A DNA stretch of 64,000 bases, from NCBI GenBank assembly GCA_965206595.1, contig OZ242214.1, forward strand, positions 960,001 through 1,024,000, given 5' to 3'. The first letter of the stretch is position 1. Each line of letters starts with the position of its first letter. The position numbers and the translations under genes were made by a program. The notes under the pieces were generated by a model, which searched no databases, had not been told where the DNA came from, and saw only the letters and a list, made by a program, of their open reading frames with translations. Shown piece by piece: positions 5,335 to 28,311 of the stretch. The DNA is from Candidatus Latescibacterota bacterium (lineage in GTDB: Bacteria > Latescibacterota > UBA2968 > UBA8231).

Positions 5335-5397
5335 GCAGAGTTTTTCCAACTCATGCAGAGTTCTCTATAAAATAGAGTTGACAGGCCCATTGTCAAC
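5335..5397 (-). promoter_or_regulatory. Sigma70-like promoter and candidate operator of the membrane protein-wHTH-TonB-TPR operon
   Basis: Minus strand TTGACA (5396-5391), 16 bp, TATTTT. The palindrome CTCTAT-AAA-ATAGAG (5363-5377) overlaps the -10. AACTCT(A/G) is repeated, and GTTGACA-N7-TGTCAAC gives two opposed -35 boxes. Confidence 0.5.
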
Positions 5398-5438
5398 TGT
5401 TTATTCAATACAGAATCCCCTACGTCTGGAGGCTACCC

Positions 5439-5921
5439 ATGAGACATCCGAAGAAAGCGACGCTGGCGATACTTGCCCTGCTGCTGTCCGTGCACGCCGG
5501 TCTGGCCCTGCCTGCGCCGCCCGACTCGGTGGTGGCAGCGCCATTCACCCCGGCGGGGGTCCAGGACCAGGGCCGCTTCATCCTCTTGATTTGGAATGCG
5601 GTGGAGGGAGCGGACGGATACCGGATTTACCGGGAGATAGCGGTCACTACGGGCACCGATGAACAGGGAAACCTGGTAGAGCAGGATCCCCCCGAGACTG
5701 CCCTCGTGCGGTGGGGCAGCATCGATCCAATGGAGCCTGTCGTCAGGGTCGTCGTCGCTACCGTGGACAGCGATACGAACAGTCTGTGGGCGGTCACGAC
5801 GGTGCAGAATACCGATGACGGGCCGGTGGAATCGGAGCCGGTGTACTTCCATGTACAGGTGGAAGGGATAGCGACGGGAGTGCAGGCACGCAGTTGGGGG
5901 GCTGTGAAAGCCGCCCAGTGA
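5439..5921 (+). CDS. Secreted FN3-like protein with C-terminal SWGAVK tail
   Basis: Signal peptide; LIWNAVEGADGYRIYR is FN3-like; ends ATGVQARSWGAVKAAQ. Confidence 0.75.
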   Translation: MRHPKKATLAILALLLSVHAGLALPAPPDSVVAAPFTPAGVQDQGRFILLIWNAVEGADGYRIYREIAVTTGTDEQGNLVEQDPPETALVRWGSIDPMEPVVRVVVATVDSDTNSLWAVTTVQNTDDGPVESEPVYFHVQVEGIATGVQARSWGAVKAAQ

Positions 5922-18863: not shown

Positions 18864-20346
18864 GTAACCGTTCAGTCTCCCTGCAGTAGTTTGCGCATGT
18901 AAAGAAATACCTAAGCGGGTTTTCGGGTTCGTCGGTATTTTCGGATTGGTTGTGTGTTGCAGATTCTCCGGATACGAGCAACCCCATGAAGAGACCCCCT
19001 GAGGGTGCGATTTCCGAAGGCGACTTGCGTCAGCGCATTGTCCAGCTCGAGCGGATCGTGGAACAACAGACGTCCCGCATCGCCGAGCTGGAGCAGGAAT
19101 TGGCCCGTCGCAAGGGGCGATCCCGCCGTGGCGCTCAAACCTCCTCGTCGGGTTCCTCCACGCGGCGTACCGATGCCTCCGGCCGTCGCCGGTCCTCGGG
19201 GCGCTCGCCGGGCGGACAGCCCGGGCACGAAGGACCCGGCCGCTCGTGGGTATCGGTCGAGCAGGTGGACGAACGGATCCCGGTCAAGCCCAGCCATTGC
19301 CACGGATGCGGGCACCCGTTGACGGGAGACGATCCTCATCCGCAGCGTCACCAGGAAGTCGTCATCCCGCCGCTGCGGGCCGAGGTCATCGAGTATCAGT
19401 TGCACACCCTGCGCTGCGCTCACTGCGACCGCCTGACCGCAGCCGGTTGGCCCGAGGGCGTATCGCGGCACACCTTCGGTCCCAGCGTGCAGGCCTGGGT
19501 CGGCCTGCTGGCCGGGGCCTACCGGCTGAGCAAGCGCAACATCCGGGCGCTGTTGTCCGACGCCTTCGGCCTCGAGGTGTCGCTGGGTACCGTCAGCCGG
19601 CTGGAACGGGAAGTGGCTGCGACCCTGGCGGCTCCGGTCGAGGAGGCGCGCGCCTTCGTTCGCCGACAGGGCCTCGTCAACGTCGACGAGACCGGCTGGC
19701 GCCAGGGCCGCGCCAAGGCCTGGTTGTGGACCGCGGTGACCGAGGGCGTCACCGTATTCTCCATTCGCCCCAGCCGGGGACGCGACGGGGTCGATGAGAT
19801 GCTGGGTGCGGATAACACGGCGGTGGTCGGCTGCGATCGCTATTCGGCCTATGGGCATCTGCCGCTTCGACGCCGGCAAGTGTGCTGGGCGCATCTGCGG
19901 CGCGCCTTCGAGGAGTTCGTGGCCCGGGGCGGAGAGGCCGGGCGCGTCGGTCACCACCTGTTGGACCGCAGCGAGCAGCTGTTTACCTGGTGGCATCAAG
20001 TCCGCGACGGCACCCTGTCCCGCGCCCGCTTCCAGGACTATATCGACGATTTGTGTCTGCGCTTTCGTTTTCATTTGTGCTATGGGCAGCGGTTCGCCGA
20101 CGCCAAGACGGCGGCCACCTGCGGAAATCTCCTCGACCTCGGGCCGGCCCGAGCGCCTGCTCACGGTGCGCGATACCCTGGGCCAGCAACAGCGCAACGT
20201 CCTCGACTATCTCAGGATGGCCTGTCAGGCTGCCGTGTCTCAGCAGCCGGCGCCCTCGCTGCTGCCTTCAGCCCACTCCCCCATTCGTTAATATTCTGCT
20301 ACCATTCCGCCCCCGGCCCCAACCTGCCAGGGAACTGAACGGTTAC
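18864..20346 (+). mobile_element. IS66-family insertion sequence (tnpC only) with 8-bp TSD
   Basis: IR GTAACCGTTCAG / CTGAACGGTTAC; TSD CTTTATTA at 18856-18863 and 20347-20354. Confidence 0.92.
18986..20291 (+). pseudogene. IS66 TnpC transposase with internal deletion and frameshift near 20145
   Basis: GGQPGHEG, CHGCG, VDETGW, QVCWAHLRR; the PTNNxAER segment is missing. Confidence 0.85.
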
Positions 20347-20359
20347 CTTTATTAAGTGG

Positions 20360-20869
20360 TTAAATCTCAACTCGGCTCTCGTACACCTGGGCATGACCAC
20401 TTTGGTCCGACGCAAAAACCACGTAGCGTTCACCCGGGGAGAAATGCGGATGCGGATGCGTGTGCTGCGGCGCATGGACCGCGACCACTCGCACCACCAC
20501 CTCCTGTTCCCGCCCCACCCGGATCATCTCCCGCGCCTGCGCCACCAAACTGCACCAAGTGGTCTCGCACAAATTGTGGATGCCGTGGCTCGACAGGTAT
20601 ATCGAATACGCGTAGTGCGAGGGCACCGGCGTGACGACCAACGCCGCCTCGGCGATCCCGTCCCTGACCAATTCGCGCACATCGTAAGCCCGCACGCCGA
20701 GCGCTGCGGCCGCCCGGTCGCAATGCTCCTCGACCGGATCGACGCAAGCCACCACCTCGACCCAGTCTTCAAGCGACGGCAGCAAAGGCTGATAAATGGT
20801 GCTGGCGCGATTGTAAGGATTTCGGCGCCTTTCTGATCCGAAGCTCCTTCCGGCGGGGGGCTCGAGCAA
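20360..20869 (-). pseudogene. Chimeric remnant: Gfo/Idh/MocA N-terminus fused to an oligogalacturonate-lyase/TolB-like C-terminus
   Basis: VVACVDP...LVVTPVPSH...HNLCET followed by HPHPHFSPGERYVVFASDQSGHAQVY. Confidence 0.6.
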
Positions 20870-20955: not shown

Positions 20956-22125
20956 ATGAAAATCGAATCGATCGACTTCCAAATCCTCGAAAGCGATCCC
21001 GTTGAACCGGAGTGGCGTCCACTGCGGGCGATGCGAGAGTATCCGGGGTCGACCAAGGTGCGGTTCGGGCATCGGCTGTTCAGCGGGGACGGGATCCGCT
21101 TGGAGCCCAGGCCGGCTTACACGTGTCTGCTCCGGATCCGAACCGATGCGAATCTCGAGAGCATCGGATCCTTCTCCTCCGGCTGGGGGAAAGAGGATCT
21201 CGAGTGGGGGGCGCGTACGTTCAAGGTCCAGTGGGAGCCGGAACTCGTCGGGCAGGATGCACTGAATCGCGAGTATATGTGGCACAAAATGTGGATGGCC
21301 CGGCGCTACTTTCATATGACATCGACAGGTCCTCTCGCTTTGATCGACACGCTTTTGTGGGATCTGGCGGGGCTCCACGCCAGGTTGCCTGTCCACAAGC
21401 TGCTCGGTGGATTTCGCGATCGTGTCCCGGCCTATCTCACGGAAACGGGCATCCCCTACGAAGACACGCTGAAGTCGGCGCAACGGGCAGTGGACGAGGG
21501 TTACAAGGGGTTCAAGGACCACTCGATGCTGGGCGTCGAAACAAACCTCGCCCTCGCCAGGGACATCCGCAGTCTGGTCGGCAACGAGATGGCATTAATG
21601 CACGATCCCGTCCAGCAATACACCGTTGAAGATGCCATCAAAGTGTCGCGCGGGTTGGAAGAGCTGGGGTACATATGGATCGAAGAGCCCCTGCAGGAGT
21701 TCGACATCAACGGGCTGAAACGTCTTTCCGACGCGGTTGATCTACCGGTGATGGCGCTCGAATCGATACATGGAAATCCCTACCTGGCGACGCCCTATCT
21801 TGTGGCGGGAGCGATCGATATCGTGCGGAATACCGGGCTCGGGATCACCGGCAAGATGAAGCTCGCGAATCTTGCAGAGATGTTCGGACTGAATGTCCAC
21901 GGTGGAGGGGCGCAGGTTGTGGCCGCGACCCGAAACGACGACTGGTGGGAAGTGGGGGCGTGGCTGCCGACGGTCGCTGACCGCTCGATTTCTGCGGCAT
22001 TTGCTGGCCTGATACGGGAAACTACGGAGGTCAGGGACGGCTATATGTATGTGCCACAGACGCCTGGGTTGGGGCGGGAGATAGACTGGGCGCAGATTGA
22101 GGCGAGGACCATTTTAAGGGTGTAG
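20956..22125 (+). CDS. Mandelate racemase/muconate lactonizing enzyme family protein
   Basis: IDTLLWDLAG, GYKGFKDH, LMHDP, WIEEP, PQTPGLG. Confidence 0.9.
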   Translation: MKIESIDFQILESDPVEPEWRPLRAMREYPGSTKVRFGHRLFSGDGIRLEPRPAYTCLLRIRTDANLESIGSFSSGWGKEDLEWGARTFKVQWEPELVGQDALNREYMWHKMWMARRYFHMTSTGPLALIDTLLWDLAGLHARLPVHKLLGGFRDRVPAYLTETGIPYEDTLKSAQRAVDEGYKGFKDHSMLGVETNLALARDIRSLVGNEMALMHDPVQQYTVEDAIKVSRGLEELGYIWIEEPLQEFDINGLKRLSDAVDLPVMALESIHGNPYLATPYLVAGAIDIVRNTGLGITGKMKLANLAEMFGLNVHGGGAQVVAATRNDDWWEVGAWLPTVADRSISAAFAGLIRETTEVRDGYMYVPQTPGLGREIDWAQIEARTILRV

Positions 22126-22184
22126 CCGCGTTTTTACGCAGCCATCGTGCGGGGTTGAAATGAACAACAACGACTGAAAAAATG
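22118..22184. mobile_element. Orphan end of an ISKra4-like element
   Basis: First 28 bp GGGTGTAGCCGCGTTTTTACGCAGCCAT identical to 31252-31279. Confidence 0.75.
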
Positions 22185-23405
22185 GGCTCCTCTGGAGAAT
22201 CTGTGGGTGAGGAGGGGAGGCTGCGGCGATGGGAATAGAGGAGGCCAGGTAGCCCAGGCGCATCATCCCCCGGTATGTTGGGACAGTCCACCAAGACGGA
22301 ACCCAACTACCTGTGGAGGGAATGATGCGCCTGATCACGGTACTAAACCGGTGCACGACCTTCAAGCGGTTTGTGTTTGAGGGCAGTCATTTTGACCGGC
22401 ACGGAAGGATAATGGTGAGGATAAGGCCACGGAAAAACTCCCGGGGCGCGTGCAGCGGCTGCGGTCACTTGGCCCCCACCTATGACACGGCCCCCGAGGC
22501 CCGGCTGTTCGAGTTTGTTCCCCTCTGGGGGTTTCCGGTCTTTCTGGTGTATCGCATGCGCCGGGTTGCCTGCAAAGCCTGCGGCCGGGTGGTCGTCGAG
22601 AAGGTCCCCTGGAGCACGGGCAAGCACCACCTGACCGACCTCTACCGCTGCTTCCTGGCCCAGGGGGCCAAAAAACTGTCGTGGATCGAGGTGGCGCGTT
22701 CCTTCCGGACCCGTTGGGACAAGGTCTACCACTCCGTCCAGTACGTCGTGGACTATGGGCTCGCTCATCGCTGCCTCGACCAGGTCACGGCCCTCGGCGT
22801 GGATGAAATCCAGTATCGTAAGGGGCCTCATTATCTGACGTTGCTGTACCAGATCGACCCCCACCGCCGCCGCCTGTTGTGGATGGGCGAGAAGCGGACG
22901 AAGAAGGCCTTGAACGACGGCTTTACCGAACGGGAGCAGGAGCACCGGCGCAAGCAGGAAGCCGACGGCGAGCAGGAGCCGACCCGTTTCCTCGACCAGA
23001 AGCGACTCCCAAGGCTTGAAGCTGTCGGAGCTATTGAAGATGAACCTGCGGACGGTCAGAGCCTACCTGCTCAAGGAGGACTTCCAGCGCTTCTGGGACT
23101 ACACCTACTCCGCGTGGGCTGAGAAGTTCCTCCAGCGCGGGTGTTTCCGTACGATGAGAAGCAACATCGAACCGATGAAAGACATCGCCGGAATGCTGCG
23201 GCGTCACCAAGAGCTCATCCTCAATTGGTTCAGGGCCAGGAAGCAGTTCAACAACGGCATGGTCGAGGGCTTGAACCTGAAATGGAATCTGACAGGGAGA
23301 AAAGCATTCGGATGCCGCACCTTCAAGGCACTCCAAATCGCTTCATTCCATCAGCTTGGCGATTTACCCGAGCCACAATTCACCCACGAATTCTACTGAC
23401 GAGCC
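22185..23405 (+). mobile_element. ISL3-family element with internally deleted, frameshifted transposase (22313-23399)
   Basis: Imperfect IRs GGCTC...GTGGGTGA; LGVDEI, RAYLLKEDF, NGMVEGLN; no TSD. Confidence 0.85.
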
Positions 23406-24004
23406 GAATTTATTGACTACTACAACGACTGTATTGTTCTGGTGATCGACGGAGATCACGGCGGCGGTGCGGGTAGTGACAACATTGTCTCGGTGGAAGA
23501 GGCCGCGGAAATTCGGAACAGAAGCCAGGAATATTTCGCCATCGCCCGCACCCCGGAAGGGCCGATTCTGGATGAAACGTTCACCAGGTCCAGGTCGGGA
23601 GAGTTCGCCTGGACGGTCCTGCCCCCTTATGGGGACGGCGGAGAGGGGGGTGGCCGGAGAAAACCCGATCATCAGCGTGATCGAGCTGTACGTCACCCCG
23701 TTCGACCGCTGGGCGTGGGACGACATCGAGGGGAGCGCGGTCAGCGATCTGGCCCCGAACAAAACAATCGGCTTCGGGATCATGGTGAATGAGGAGGACC
23801 CTCCTGAAGACGAATGGGGCGCGCCCTGGGTCGAAGCCTCGCAACCTGTCGATCACTACAGTCGATCACTACAATGGCATTTGGGCCCTGCAAGCCGACG
23901 GCTATCTCGACGGCCTGCTGCTGCCTCCGGAAGGCGAACTGGAAGACAGCGCGGTCGAGTCGGTATCCTGGGGCCGGATCAAGGCCGCCCTGGAGATGGA
24001 GTAG
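23406..24004 (+). pseudogene. Tandem paralogue copy 1, 5'-truncated by ISL3, two frameshifts
   Basis: IDGDHGGG, AWTVLPPYGDGG, VIELYVTPFDRW, ends SAVESVSWGRIKAALEME. Confidence 0.85.
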
Positions 24005-24071
24005 CCGCATACCCGGCCATCCCTGACGCCGCCACCGATCCTTCGATGGCGTCCAGCAAGGAGGAAGATTC

Positions 24072-25025
24072 ATGGCCCCTTCCCATCCCAGCAAGCAGTT
24101 GCAAGCCCTCGGCCTGCTTATCTGGCTGGCCGTCTCCGCCGGAGCCCACATCGGCGACCGCTTGTACCCGATCCACTATCTCAGCGACGAGATGCTGGAA
24201 AAGATCGACCTCAAGGACGGCTCGGTGGAGGAGTGGCAGGAGCTGATCAGCGAGCCGTCCATGACCCTGCTGGATTTCAGAGAGGTAAATGACAGGTCAC
24301 TCGATCCGTCCGACCTCGACTTCCGCATCTGGCTGGCCTGGCACGACGACCCCGCCCGTTTCTACGTGGCCTACGTTGCCAGCGACGACATATACCAGAA
24401 CACCCACGAGTACAACGTCAGCGAAACTTCCGTACGAGATTTAATGATCCTGCATGACAGTATCACCTTCGTGATCGACGGGGATCACAGTGGTGGTGCG
24501 GGCTGTCCCGGTAATTGCTCCATGGAAGAGTGGACGGAGATTCGCAGGCGAAGTCAGGAATACCAAGCCATCGCCCGAACCCCTGACGGCCCGACCTTGG
24601 ATGACAGGCCGACCAGGTATTTGTCGGGAGAGTTCGCCTGGACGGTCCTGCCCCCCTACGGGGACGCCGGCGGAAGCGTGGCCGGAGAAAACCCGACCAT
24701 CAGCGTGATCGAGCTGTTCGTCACGCCGTTCGACCGCTGGGCGTACGACGACATCGAGGGGAGCGTGGCCAGCGATCTGACCGCGGGACAGGTCGTCGGC
24801 TTCGGGATCATGTTGTATGACGAGGACCCACCTGAAGACGAGTGGGGGCATGTCTGGGTCGAAGCCACCCAGCCTGTCGATCACTCCAATGCCATCTGGG
24901 GGATGCAGGAGGATGGGTATCTCGACGGCATGCTGCTGCCCCCCGCCGGCGCGGAATCCGGGGAAGACAGCGCGGTCGAGTCGGTTTCCTGGGGCCGGAT
25001 CAAGGCCTCCCTGGAGATGGAGTAA
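24072..25025 (+). CDS. Tandem paralogue copy 2: secreted acidic protein, possibly CBM9/DOMON-like beta-sandwich
   Basis: Signal peptide ending AGA-H; DGSVEEW, RIWLAW...RFYVAYVASDD, DSITFVIDGD, GFGIMLYDED; tail SWGRIKASLEME. Confidence 0.85.
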   Translation: MAPSHPSKQLQALGLLIWLAVSAGAHIGDRLYPIHYLSDEMLEKIDLKDGSVEEWQELISEPSMTLLDFREVNDRSLDPSDLDFRIWLAWHDDPARFYVAYVASDDIYQNTHEYNVSETSVRDLMILHDSITFVIDGDHSGGAGCPGNCSMEEWTEIRRRSQEYQAIARTPDGPTLDDRPTRYLSGEFAWTVLPPYGDAGGSVAGENPTISVIELFVTPFDRWAYDDIEGSVASDLTAGQVVGFGIMLYDEDPPEDEWGHVWVEATQPVDHSNAIWGMQEDGYLDGMLLPPAGAESGEDSAVESVSWGRIKASLEME

Positions 25026-25038
25026 GGAGGGAAAGCAG

Positions 25039-26005
25039 ATGACTGGTATGCGAATCGAAAAGCATTGCTGCGCCGCCCTGGGCCTCGTCCTGTGGCTGGC
25101 CGTCTCGGCCGGGGCTCACGTAGGCGACCGCGTGTACCCGATCGCCTACCTCAGCGACGAGATGCTGGAACGGATCGATCTCAGGGACGGCTTGGTGGAG
25201 GAGTGGCAGGAGCTGCTCGGCGAACCCACAATGACCACCCTGGATTTCGGGAGTATGCTGGATCCTGATCCGTCCGACCTGGACTTCCGCATATGGCTGG
25301 CCTGGCACGACGATCCGGACCGTTTCTACGTAGCCTTCGTGGCCAGCGACGACGAGTATCAGAACACCCACGACTACAATGTCAGCGAAACCTCCGTACG
25401 GTCCCATATGGACCAGCATGACAGTATCACCCTGGGGATGGACGGAGATCACAGCGGGGGTGCGGGCTGTCCCGGTAATTGTTCGGTGGAAGAATGGACG
25501 GAGATTCGCAGGCGAAGTCAGAAATACGACGCCATCGCCCACATCCCTGACGGCCCGACCTTGGATGACCGGGTGACCAGGGAGGCGATGGGTGAGTTCG
25601 CCTGGATGGTCCTGCCCCCCTACGGGGACGCCGGCGGAGGCGTGGCCGGAGAAAACCCGACCATCAGCGTCATCGAGCTCTACGTCACCCCGTTCGACCG
25701 CTGGGCGTACGACGACATCGAGGGGAGCGTTACCAGCGATCTGACTGCAGGACAGGTCATCGGCTTGGGGATCCAGGTGTACGACACGGACCCGGCCGGA
25801 GACCCACCTGAATTCGACGGGTTCGCGCTGCCTTGGTCATCCGACCCCATTGAGCATAATGTTCTCTACTGGGCCATCTTCGGCATGCAAGAGGACGGCT
25901 ATCTCGACGGCATGCTGCTGCCCCCCGCTGGCGCGGAATCCGGGGAGGACAGCGCGGTCGAGTCGGTATCCTGGCCGGATCAAGGCCCCCCTGGAGATGG
26001 AGTAG
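25039..26005 (+). CDS. Tandem paralogue copy 3, 2-nt frameshift inside the C-terminal tail
   Basis: RBS AAGGAGG; same framework; TCCTGGCCGG at ~25969-25978 versus TCCTGGGGCCGG in copies 1 and 2. Confidence 0.85.
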
Positions 26006-26153
26006 CGGGCGTACCCGCTGTCCCGTCGTCCTCCCTACGCCACCACCCTTACCTCGGGCCGGCCTGACACTTGGCCAGCCTGCATTCCTTCGGCTCCGGG
26101 AAATCCCGTGGCGGTGCCGGCGATTTTTCCGAAACCAGGATCGCTCCCGCCGG

Positions 26154-26822
26154 CTACAGCAGCGGAAGAGCCTCTTCCAGAGAGATCTCCCTGAAGCTCT
26201 GGCGAGCCCCGTCCCGCGGCATGCCGTCGAGGAAGCGCTCGCGCCGCCGCTGCCAATCGCCGTCCCCTTCCACCGAGTCGAACATCGCCGCCGCCCAATC
26301 GCGGATCGGTTCCGCCTTGGAGGTGGCGACCTCGAGGGTCGGCTCCTCCACCTGCCCCTCCTCTGAGTACAGGAGGCAGCGCCTGACGTTGCGCTCCAGG
26401 CTCGCCATCTGCACCCGCTGAAACTCGTTGCTCCGCGGCGGCCGGTCAGGCAGCAGCAGGATGCCGACGCCGCGGTCGGTGATGGCCGCGGCGGTTTCGT
26501 TGGCCCCTTCGGGGACCGGCACGTCCTTGCGCCCGGGCCAGATGTCGAACATGGAGTACGACGCCGGCGGCTGCCGCCGTTGGAACGAGAAGAAGTCGGG
26601 GTAGGCGAAGAAGTCGCCCCCCTCCTCGCGGTAGCGGTCGTAGAAGGCGGTGACGCAGGCCATGATCAGCAGGGTGGCTCCCGCCCCTTCGCAGCCCTCC
26701 GGAGCGAACAGCCCGAGCCGGTCGGTCCTGGCGAAGCCGGCGAAGTAGCGGGCGTGCGTCGTCGCCTGCCCGCGGTCGACGATCTCGAAATCGGTGCTCG
26801 CGAAGACTGCCGTGCTGTGCAT
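26154..26822 (-). CDS. Hypothetical protein
   Basis: RBS AAGGAGA; MHSTAVF...; GC-biased codons; no family recognised. Confidence 0.7.
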   Translation of the reverse strand: MHSTAVFASTDFEIVDRGQATTHARYFAGFARTDRLGLFAPEGCEGAGATLLIMACVTAFYDRYREEGGDFFAYPDFFSFQRRQPPASYSMFDIWPGRKDVPVPEGANETAAAITDRGVGILLLPDRPPRSNEFQRVQMASLERNVRRCLLYSEEGQVEEPTLEVATSKAEPIRDWAAAMFDSVEGDGDWQRRRERFLDGMPRDGARQSFREISLEEALPLL

Positions 26823-26869
26823 GTGCTCTCCTTGTGCGTAAAGCGCGAGGACTTTCGTGCCGTGAATAG

Positions 26870-27688
26870 CTACAGGTCGAACAGGGAGGGCGGGTCCCCC
26901 TCCGGATAGCGGTCGAGGTATCTCTGAATGTACTTCCGGGTCACGGGGGGCATGCGGTCCAAGTGCCCATCCCGGGTCAGCGGCTCGCGCTGTCCGTGCT
27001 CGTGAGCCATCACCGTGGCCCCGGCGCTCCAGAAGGCGCAGTGCAGGGTCCAGCGCTTGCGCCCCTCCGGGTTCCAGCCGCGGTGCCAGAGGTTGGCGTT
27101 GTAGTAGGCGATGTCCCCCGGCTCCAGGCCGACGACGAGGGCGTTCGGCATCGCTCCGGATTCGCTGCGGGACGCCTCGATCTCCGCGGCCGTCGACGCC
27201 CGCCGGTGACTCCCGGGGACGATGTGGAGGAAGCGGTCCCCGGCAACGAGCGGCGCGTTGAACTGCACGAAGCTGCCCTCGTGCCGGCGCAGGTACGCGG
27301 TCTCGTCCGCGTCTCCCGGACGGCACAGGTCGCGGTGCCATTTCTGGGTGTACGGCTGCCCGCCGCCCCCGGCGAGCATTCCGAACAGGCAGTGGCGTAC
27401 CTCCCCGCCGCTAACCAGGGCCTCGAGATGGGGTGCGAGGTCCGCGTCGATCCAGTCGGCGAAGGCCGGGTGGTACTTGTCGGGGTTCAGCAGGTGGCCG
27501 GTGCGTGCCGGCAGACGGAGCTCGCGGTCGATCCAGCCCAGCTCGCATTCTCCCGCAAGGCCCTTGTCGATCATCCGCTCCACCCCCTCGAGAAGGGCCT
27601 GTACGCGGGATTCCGCAAAGGCCTGCCGCAGAACGAGGACCCCTTCCGTGGCGTACGTCCCCTGGTCTTTTTCCGAGATGGCCTTCAA
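26870..27688 (-). CDS. Phytanoyl-CoA dioxygenase (PhyH) family protein
   Basis: KWHRD, LHIVPGSH, LEPGD, LWHRG; TTG start inferred. Confidence 0.85.
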   Translation of the reverse strand: MKAISEKDQGTYATEGVLVLRQAFAESRVQALLEGVERMIDKGLAGECELGWIDRELRLPARTGHLLNPDKYHPAFADWIDADLAPHLEALVSGGEVRHCLFGMLAGGGGQPYTQKWHRDLCRPGDADETAYLRRHEGSFVQFNAPLVAGDRFLHIVPGSHRRASTAAEIEASRSESGAMPNALVVGLEPGDIAYYNANLWHRGWNPEGRKRWTLHCAFWSAGATVMAHEHGQREPLTRDGHLDRMPPVTRKYIQRYLDRYPEGDPPSLFDL

Positions 27689-27873: not shown

Positions 27874-28311
27874 TCATCCAGACCCAATCCCGTCAAATTC
27901 GCAATATGCCCTGCCAGCTCGGCTTCGTACAGCCGCCAGATCACGCATGCAATACGCGATCATCAGCACTTTACCCGAGGTTGCAGATGCGGCAATCAGT
28001 TCCTGGCAGGCCGCTTCATCATTGGCCATGGGTTTTTCGAGCAGGACGTGAACGCCCGCATTGAGACAGGCACATCCTGCGGAAGAGTGCAAATCGTGGG
28101 GCAGCGCGAGCAATACGGCATCTACCGTGTCCAGGATCTCGCGATAATCCGTCGCCACACAGGCTCCGGGAAATTGCTGCGCGACTGCTTCTGCGCGTTC
28201 GGGAACGACATCGACGGCAGCGGCCAATGCGACCCGGTCGCTCAGGGTGTGAAACCGCCGCATGTGGACACCCCCCATGCCGCCACATCCGATCATACCC
28301 AGTTTGATCAT
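27874..28311 (-). pseudogene. Gfo/Idh/MocA oxidoreductase, N-terminal domain only
   Basis: IGCGGMG, HVLLEKPMA; homology ends after IAYCMR. Confidence 0.8.

Follow-up and report, generated by a model that had tools for sequence, protein, structure and literature searches.

Do three neighbouring genes that share a nearly fixed framework and differ in their loops form a diversifying, antibody-like repertoire of secreted binders? The genes lie head to tail on the + strand, within 23406–26067 and with spacings of 1029 and 964 nt, in a 64,000-nt stretch of a Candidatus Latescibacterota genome (the window; coordinates without a prefix are positions in it, and G000 denotes its own 7.05-Mb single-contig genome). 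An initial annotation, made from the window alone, read them as such a repertoire. We found that a plainer account is probably correct, namely that this is a tandem array of an expanded protein family of the carbohydrate-binding module (CBM) family 9 type, with fast-changing loops and occasional ordinary recombination, and that the array is now decaying. The three direct copies and all the motifs quoted for them are indeed present, but copy 2 alone is intact: copy 1 is a pseudogene split by an insertion sequence (IS) and copy 3 has lost its C-terminal tail, which corrects the picture of the locus as three equivalent genes.

An expanded family with a predicted CBM9-type fold

With copy 2 (protein P0001) as query, tblastn gave 92 matches in G000, and extraction of open reading frames (ORFs) yielded 48 full-length ORFs and 41 partial ones, grouped in 48 clusters, with 27 of the 48 full-length genes in clusters holding at least two full-length members. 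Each full-length copy has its own start codon and signal peptide and encodes a single-domain protein of 293–342 aa; longer ORFs holding the domain proved, when read by eye, to be read-through frames and not fusions. A search of 5.8 billion proteins returned 634 relatives, and a representative library (clusters at 50% identity) yielded 929 clusters at E ≤ 1e-3, of which 670 passed E ≤ 1e-10. No relative was found in the metagenome contigs scanned with P0001. Among genome records with titles, those containing the family are metagenome-assembled genomes of Candidatus Latescibacterota. In a sample of this phylum, 86 of 151 genomes gave matches: all 63 sampled from the window's own taxonomic family did so, none did in two sister families (0/30 and 0/19), and several other families gave weaker matches. 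Copies 2 and 3 match no Pfam family at E ≤ 0.01 and no NCBIfam entry, and among the titles and abstract openings surveyed there was no paper describing the family. Judged from these sequences, it is a lineage-specific, greatly expanded family of single-domain ~290-aa proteins with predicted Sec-dependent export. In the ESM Atlas, the clusters nearest to P0001 (scores 0.91–0.97) are unnamed, partly with CBM9_1; where the phylum is known it is most often Latescibacterota, Gemmatimonadota or Poribacteria, which gives a lead that proteins of this stand-alone CBM9-like kind may occur there.

The initial annotation had proposed secreted proteins with a CBM9/DOMON-like beta-sandwich, and both parts of that proposal agree with our data. 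The N-termini carry signal-peptide-like segments (read by eye; predicted helix at residues 8–25), and an AlphaFold2 model of copy 2, built on 114 relatives, had a mean predicted local distance difference test score of 81.4 and a predicted template modelling score of 0.82, with the tail and the first 10 residues below 50 on the former scale. Against the CBM9 module of Thermotoga maritima Xyn10A (1i82_A), the model gave a VIA Z score of 18.1 (root-mean-square deviation 2.5 Å, 188/189 residues aligned) and a Foldseek E value of 1.4e-8; the next structural matches were 4jpq_B (Z 15.6), NxrC (7b04_C, Z 11.8) and EbdC (2ivf_C, Z 10.7). Sequence comparison left fainter traces. Pfam CBM9_1 (PF06452) matched 9 of the 114 relatives weakly at E ≤ 10 (best 0.033), one distant tail-bearing member (G000 220389–220610, in ORF 219621–221099) scored above the CBM9_1 cut-off (31.1 against 23.4 bits), and PDB sequence searches with P0001 or with the 114-row profile returned chance-level matches only. 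A CBM9-type beta-sandwich is thus the predicted fold.

Identity between copy 2 and CBM9-2 of Xyn10A (1I82) is only 14%, and there are further differences: members of the present family are stand-alone secreted proteins rather than a module of a glycoside hydrolase, and they have ~70 extra residues in variable loops, a conserved C-terminal tail and tens of paralogues per genome. CAZy defines a CBM as a module within a carbohydrate-active enzyme; these single-domain proteins, to which only a signal peptide and a tail are added, fall outside that definition. BACUNI_03838, a putative carbohydrate-binding protein of Bacteroides uniformis (4JPQ), is likewise stand-alone and has the same fold (201 residues aligned) at 6% identity, and to our knowledge shows no expansion, tail or variable-loop architecture. 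The family most resembles a lectin-type or CBM-type family of binders on a predicted CBM9 scaffold, and its members would bind a ligand, probably a glycan.

The matches to NxrC and EbdC raise the alternative of a DOMON-type haem b or metal-binding module in place of a carbohydrate binder. NxrC and EbdC belong to molybdoenzyme complexes, as subunits whose haem is ligated by Met and Lys, and they share the superfold with copy 2. In favour of this alternative stand the conserved residues H26, H91, H112, Met41 and H139, the last fixed within the invariant DGDHSGG motif, and cleavage at the predicted AxA site would leave His as the mature N-terminus in 42 of the 48 paralogues (residue 26 of copy 2, 24147–24149). 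We nevertheless consider this alternative improbable, given that CBM9 and the Bacteroides carbohydrate-binding protein score clearly higher, that CBM9_1 is the sole family with recurrent weak matches and one above cut-off, and that the N-terminal position is Gln in the other six paralogues. No partner genes of the NxrC/EbdC kind adjoin the array.

Downstream of its ~265-aa domain, copy 2 continues into a Pro/Gly-rich linker and ends with SAVESVSWGRIKASLEME. The tail motif [STA]W[GA]x[ILVM]K[ASTND] stands within 12 residues of the stop codon in 77 ORFs of the genome, against 86 occurrences anywhere in its six-frame ORFs. Sixty-four of these 77 ORFs belong to the family; the other 13 include two PD40 beta-propeller proteins. 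Such sharing among otherwise dissimilar proteins suggests that the tail probably acts as a sorting or docking tag, so that a member would consist of a CBM9-type domain, a flexible linker and this short conserved tag. A bearer of the tail from outside the family lies in the window itself (ORF 5382–5918 on the + strand; 179 aa, signal-peptide-like start, no Pfam match, ending ...ARSWGAVKAAQ).

Neither the fold nor gene conversion in tandem families is new, and the mechanism is therefore not new either. What is new or little known is that one Latescibacterota family has multiplied a stand-alone exported CBM9-like protein to ~90 loci in each genome, that the variation is confined to five loops, and that a short tail also occurs on exported proteins of unrelated kinds. 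Should ligand specificity reside in the loops, the family would offer many natural variants of a binder on a single scaffold, with which one could ask what these uncultured bacteria harvest or adhere to.

Variable loops and recombination through the framework

Column entropy, computed over the 48 paralogues and over the 114 relatives, confines the variation to five regions, VR1–VR5 (copy 2 numbering; Table 1), all of which lie between predicted strands, the strands and 28 residues being invariant. The proposal of variable loops on a fixed framework is thereby borne out. Since the model spans 261 residues compared to 189 in CBM9, the loops probably consist in large part of sequence inserted into the CBM9 core. 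Strands and a number of acidic and aromatic residues are fixed, and VR1–VR5 change fast through point substitutions and insertions or deletions. At the start of VR3, most close relatives have a C-x3-6-C pair (GCPGNCS, GCDHDCS, GCSAVFDCAG; residues 145–149 of copy 2, 24504–24518), which possibly closes a small variable loop by a disulfide; the copy 1 type of VR3 is without it (GSDNVS).

The initial annotation saw copy 2 as a mosaic, sharing some loops with copy 3 and VR5 with copy 1 (hereafter c1, c2 and c3). This non-concordant pattern is real at the DNA level: of the differing sites, 81 unite c2 and c3 against c1, 56 unite c1 and c2 against c3 and 23 unite c1 and c3 against c2, the c1=c2 class being concentrated in alignment columns 740–850, that is, in VR5. 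For the window's own copies, however, no recombination is needed to explain it. VR5 of copy 2 is 79–82% identical to that of c1 and of two genes from sister genomes (A94 and X87, introduced below) and 49–64% identical to that of c3; identity between c1 and c2 in this region (0.76–0.82) is no higher than in the framework, and it is copy 3 that is aberrant (0.33–0.64). The VR5 tree keeps c2 with c3 (60% bootstrap) on a long c3 branch. Third-position divergence of c2 is similar from c1 (0.36) and from c3 (0.42), and first- and second-position divergence is not (0.15 and 0.33 respectively), so the copy 3 loop has simply changed fast at the protein level. Nor is that loop unrelated, as had been claimed: it retains the anchor residues DPPE...W...P[VI][DE]H...AI[WF]GMQEDG, with a 12-nt insertion that by eye looks like a duplication, and tblastn and blastn of the whole genome for a donor found only the locus itself. 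It is therefore likely that the c1-type loop, retained by c1, c2, A94 and X87, is the more ancient in the array and that the copy 3 loop diverged fast in place.

Recombination through the framework, the other half of the mosaic proposal, does hold in relatives of the window's genes. Syntenic arrays with the same downstream flank were available from two sister genomes: locus L031 in G094, with three intact genes (A94, B94 and C94), and locus L053 in G087, with X87 and a broken Y87. Rather than being concordant along the gene, trees of successive segments conflict with 91–100% support, the N-terminal segment grouping c2 with X87 (91), A94 with C94 (97) and c3 with B94 (84), and the middle segment c1 with A94 and X87 (100) and B94 with C94 (100). 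Consistent with this, C94 is 87–93% identical to A94 over its first ~225 nt and 90–100% identical to B94 thereafter, B94 and C94 being 98–100% identical over ~400 nt and only 71–84% identical in the N-terminal part. At its informative residues, C94 sides with A94 and with B94 in a ratio of 16:8 on the left, which turns to 2:75 on the right (Fisher, 5.8e-11).

Metagenomic alleles behave similarly. P0003 is identical to P0007, an intact allele of copy 1, at 79 of 79 positions over residues 1–77 and to copy 2 at 236 of 240 over residues 78–317 (switch p 1.6e-18), and P0004, P0006 and P0005/P0013 switch partner at VR5 (5.6e-4 to 2e-5 for P0004, P0006 and P0005). The P0003 and C94 breakpoints both fall in the block at 24303–24371 (Table 1), crossover points thus lying in invariant blocks such as DPSDLDFRIWLAWHDDP. 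In addition, the pairwise homoplasy index (PHI) was extreme in the six-gene array at 6.976–6.984 Mb (z -21.9; 0/500 shuffles reached the value) and in the array at 0.447–0.456 Mb (446–456 kb; 0/500). Recombination is well supported in the sister-genome arrays and more weakly in the metagenomic alleles. Its evidence rests on segment identities because a table of loop types in 26 close relatives was not decisive, containing no recurring type that would alone force recombination.

The breakpoint block contains 47- and 42-nt identical runs between the 5' fragment of copy 1 and copy 2, and 26–41 identical nt even between paralogues that are 52–67% identical overall. Codon identity at conserved residues (0.49, compared to 0.37 expected from codon usage) is no higher in the block (0.53 against 0.39) than elsewhere (0.47 against 0.37), and there is therefore no sign of selection on the framework DNA sequence. 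A longest-identical-run test was also considered as conversion evidence and left unused, being confounded by the conserved blocks. Neighbouring copies keep stretches of 30–50 identical nt in the framework blocks. These would allow ordinary homologous recombination, by gene conversion or unequal crossing-over, to exchange whole segments from time to time, and in the resulting genes the N-terminal, middle and loop-5 parts differ in their nearest relatives. In this respect the mosaic genes arise no differently from those of other tandem multigene families.

Several observations weigh against this reading. Breakpoints for the informative-site tests were picked once the data had been inspected. P0003 is encoded on a 23.5-kb contig whose assembly method is not known, so that a chimera through the 47-nt identical block is possible. 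PHI was not significant for all 48 paralogues together (485/500) or for the 6470–6479 kb array (110/500), and gave a weak signal for a clade of 23 members (at third positions, 8/500). The loops exceed the framework in synonymous divergence (0.29–0.46 against 0.26, summed; 0.72 against 0.29 between c2 and c3), and framework homogenisation could thus be more pervasive than assumed here.

The extreme alternative, that the array has not recombined at all, would have the copy 3 loop simply accelerated and the other apparent mosaics produced by assembly errors. It suffices for the window's own three copies and draws some strength from the collapse of short-read unitigs in framework blocks (depth 862 at 24270–24366 against ~20 in unique parts), a collapse that may have produced chimeric short-read contigs, with that of P0003 as a candidate. 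C94 and X87, however, lie on contigs of 6.78 and 2.18 Mb, which should span 1-kb repeats (the read type is not on record), and neither their discordant, highly supported placements nor the near-identity of C94 to B94 beside its A94-like N-terminal part fits this alternative, which we regard as very improbable. As to copy 2 itself being an assembly chimera, P0003 has the same combination of VR2–VR5, so that this combination at any rate occurs outside the present assembly too.

Short-read coverage of copy 2 varied along the gene. Its VR5 (24755–24948) had a depth of ~0–3 in contigs of runs X4, X5 and X9 though the flanks were covered; the unique part at 24366–24652 was matched exactly in X4 and X5, and a 255-nt contig of X1 covers the loop without differences. 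Joints across this VR5 occur also in X1, where the loop is present, and may stem from paralogues. The low depth could reflect strain-level loop replacement or just contig drop-out.

Selection on the loops and comparison with diversification systems

If loops were exchanged as cassettes, as the antibody-like reading implied, the same loop should turn up on divergent frameworks. Taking as shared any variable region at least 80% identical that exceeds framework identity by at least 0.12, we found none among 1128 pairs of paralogues; loops instead decay to random-level identity once frameworks reach ~80%, and the copy 3 loop has no donor in the genome. Nor do the closest alleles differ mainly in their loops: P0001 and P0003 have four differences over residues 78–317, none of them in VR5, and P0002 (copy 3) and P0010, from another assembly, have three residue differences, one of which is in VR4 (both read by eye).

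Nei–Gojobori pairwise counts on extant sequences gave, for 11 independent pairs, dN/dS ratios of 0.24 in the framework and 0.51–0.74 in the loops and, for 24 independent pairs including a sister genome, 0.28 in the framework, 0.51–0.61 in the loops and 0.59 in the signal peptide. Loops thus evolve at the level of the signal peptide. A nominal excess of replacements was seen in 2 of 261 testable codons, fewer than expected by chance at p < 0.05, and 75 codons were under purifying selection, 60 of those in the framework. We infer that loop change reflects mostly relaxed constraint rather than selection for diversity.

These figures bear on the strongest rival, an adaptive repertoire whose loops would be under positive diversifying selection for different ligands, for instance glycans of a host or matrix, and in which framework-guided recombination would be the selected means of producing new combinations of loops. 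The sheer number of loci (~90 per genome), the restriction of variation to the loops, a loop dN ~3.5 times the framework dN and the existence of recombinants would all suit it. So would the four youngest pairs, which also count against relaxed constraint: their loop dN/dS ratios are 1.04, 1.00, 3.2 (34 replacement to 3 silent changes) and 0.61, three of the four being about 1 or above, and loop evolution in them may have been neutral or episodically positive. VR5, moreover, is wholly different between the positional orthologues c2 and B94 and between c3 and C94, whose flanks are 92–95% identical. Set against this are the signal-peptide-like dN/dS over 24 pairs, the paucity of codons with excess, the lack of any loop shared on a divergent framework and the location of allelic differences outside the loops, and we hold the adaptive repertoire to be unlikely. 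Less likely still is a germline-encoded combinatorial receptor library of Latescibacterota, in which dozens of tagged, surface-displayed CBM9-like binders would present five hypervariable loops to different glycans, with the invariant framework blocks kept partly for loop re-assortment between copies. If true, it would be a slow bacterial counterpart of segmental-conversion receptor systems, without a dedicated enzyme.

A programmed system of the antibody or antigenic-variation type, working by retroelement mutagenesis or by conversion from silent cassettes, is the least probable reading and is largely refuted. It could appeal only to the mosaic appearance and to the many fragments (41 partial ORFs). 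Diversity-generating retroelements (DGRs) likewise concentrate variation in the ligand-binding loops of a stable fold; here, in contrast, no copy in the window has a reverse transcriptase nearby, as the initial annotation had noted, the only two RVT_1 matches of the genome being at 2.64 and 6.11 Mb and the window at 0.96–1.02 Mb. Within 22000–27000, a search for a template repeat recovered as repeats only the three gene copies, and loop mismatches are not adenine-specific, the 109 mismatches between c1 and c2 being spread over all base pairs (A in c1 at 28, A in c2 at 20). A DGR target, marked by these three features together, is not what the array looks like.

The cassette comparison fares no better. 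In segmental gene-conversion antigenic variation, as known for pilE/pilS of Neisseria, the vlsE/vls cassettes of Borrelia and tprK of Treponema, conserved blocks likewise serve as recombination substrates and the genes are mosaic. Here, unlike in pilS and vls, each of the 48 full-length copies is a complete gene with a start codon and signal peptide of its own, there is no silent cassette set, no single expression site with promoterless cassettes and no shared loop cassette, and the events are seen between species and strains, not within a population. Fragments of the family adjoin IS copies. The evidence is thus against a DIVERSIFYING, antibody-like repertoire. What the family does display are tandem arrays, pseudogenes and discordant segment phylogeny, the marks of birth-and-death evolution with interlocus gene conversion, and we describe it accordingly, as a multigene family shaped by birth and death and by ordinary gene conversion rather than as an antibody-like system.

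Decay of the array

Copies 1 and 3 carry the lesions listed in Table 1. Copy 1 begins at about family residue 125, directly 3' of the right end of an ISL3-type element, and its motifs are spread over three reading frames, its pieces matching P0001 by tblastn in all three (genome rows 983415–983648, 983623–983862 and 983858–984001). The first frameshift lies in a G6 run with one base more than copies 2 and 3 in the DNA alignment, beside an A>G variant at 23644 in short-read runs X4 and X5. The second is a 13-nt tandem duplication, a region that contigs of X1, X4 and X9 match without differences and in which an X5 contig is without 12 of the 13 letters. Copy 3 retains all 28 residues invariant across the 114-sequence alignment, and its 2-nt deletion swaps the conserved ending GRIKASLEME for an unrelated 35-residue extension. 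The deletion site is spanned free of gaps by contigs of four runs from four studies, and P0010 has the same frameshifted ending. Given these matches in short-read contigs, the lesions are not errors of this assembly.

Table 1. Features of the array and its flanking insertion sequence (window coordinates; residues in copy 2 numbering unless stated otherwise)
Feature	Position	Strand	Description
ISL3-family insertion sequence	22185..23405	+	Internally deleted; right end abuts copy 1
Copy 1	23406..24004	+	3' part (family residues ~125–317) of an IS-split gene; pseudogene with two frameshifts
Copy 1 frameshift 1	23645..23650	+	G6 run, one base longer than in copies 2 and 3
Copy 1 frameshift 2	23848..23873	+	13-nt tandem duplication, gtcgatcactaca twice (23848–23860 and 23861–23873)
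Copy 2 (P0001)	24072..25025	+	Intact, 317 aa: signal peptide, predicted CBM9-fold domain, linker, tail
VR1	residues 69–78		
VR2	residues 114–129		
VR3	residues 143–160		
VR4	residues 176–189		
VR5 of copy 2	24816..24917 (residues 249–282)	+	Most variable and largest, with insertions or deletions; copy 1 type
Invariant framework block	24303..24371	+	Residues 78–100, DPSDLDFRIWLAWHDDPARFYVA; recombination breakpoint in relatives
Conserved C-terminal tail of copy 2	24969..25022	+	SAVESVSWGRIKASLEME
Copy 3 (P0002)	25039..26067	+	342-aa ORF, tail lost
VR5 of copy 3	25777..25890	+	Strongly diverged homologue with insertions or deletions
Copy 3 2-nt deletion	25974..25975	+	tcctgg^ccgg; copies 1 and 2 have tcctggggccgg

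Shine–Dalgarno sequences were read in copies 2 and 3, copy 2 having in addition a signal-peptide-like N-terminus that ends AGA|H. A sigma-54 consensus (at most two mismatches) gave 26 matches compared to 25.5 expected, none upstream of copy 2, and a sigma-70 and terminator scan of 22100–26400 yielded nothing usable.

The element beside copy 1 has ORFs at 22313–23122 and 23016–23399 that match Pfam DDE_Tnp_ISL3 and Zn_ribbon_ISL3, and at least 12 near-identical copies or parts of it (95–99.9%) occur in the genome. Relative to longer copies it misses ~232 nt near 23000–23008, as do four others, and its transposase ORFs are therefore split; loose ends were seen at 23405 in short-read run X9. The 5' part that copy 1 lacks, which comprises residues 1 to ~124 and shares 96% identity with P0007 over 126 residues, was found 408 kb away on the - strand, at G000 574,919–575,300. 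There it directly adjoins the opposite end of a copy of the same IS in inverted orientation. On its far side comes the sequence that lies upstream of the array in G094 (87–92% identity), with transporter and PhyH-like genes syntenic with positions 1–3404 of L031 (G000:C1:573695–575300 and 575485–578289). The two halves of copy 1 end and begin with GATTTTAT and GAATTTAT, which by eye form an imperfect 8-bp target duplication. In the simplest history, the IS inserted into copy 1 and a ~408-kb inversion then took place between two IS copies. With copy 1 thus split, the tail of copy 3 lost and copy 2 alone complete, the array is in decay in this genome.

Other copies or ends of the same IS also adjoin fragments of the family (G000 574,918 and 3,853,184–3,853,455). 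The array is flanked in addition by an IS66-family transposase ORF (18950–20338) and by two short ORFs for the GFO_IDH_MocA N-terminal domain (20360–20869 and 27874–28311; 169 and 145 aa, possibly truncated), and its neighbourhood looks IS-rich and partly degraded.

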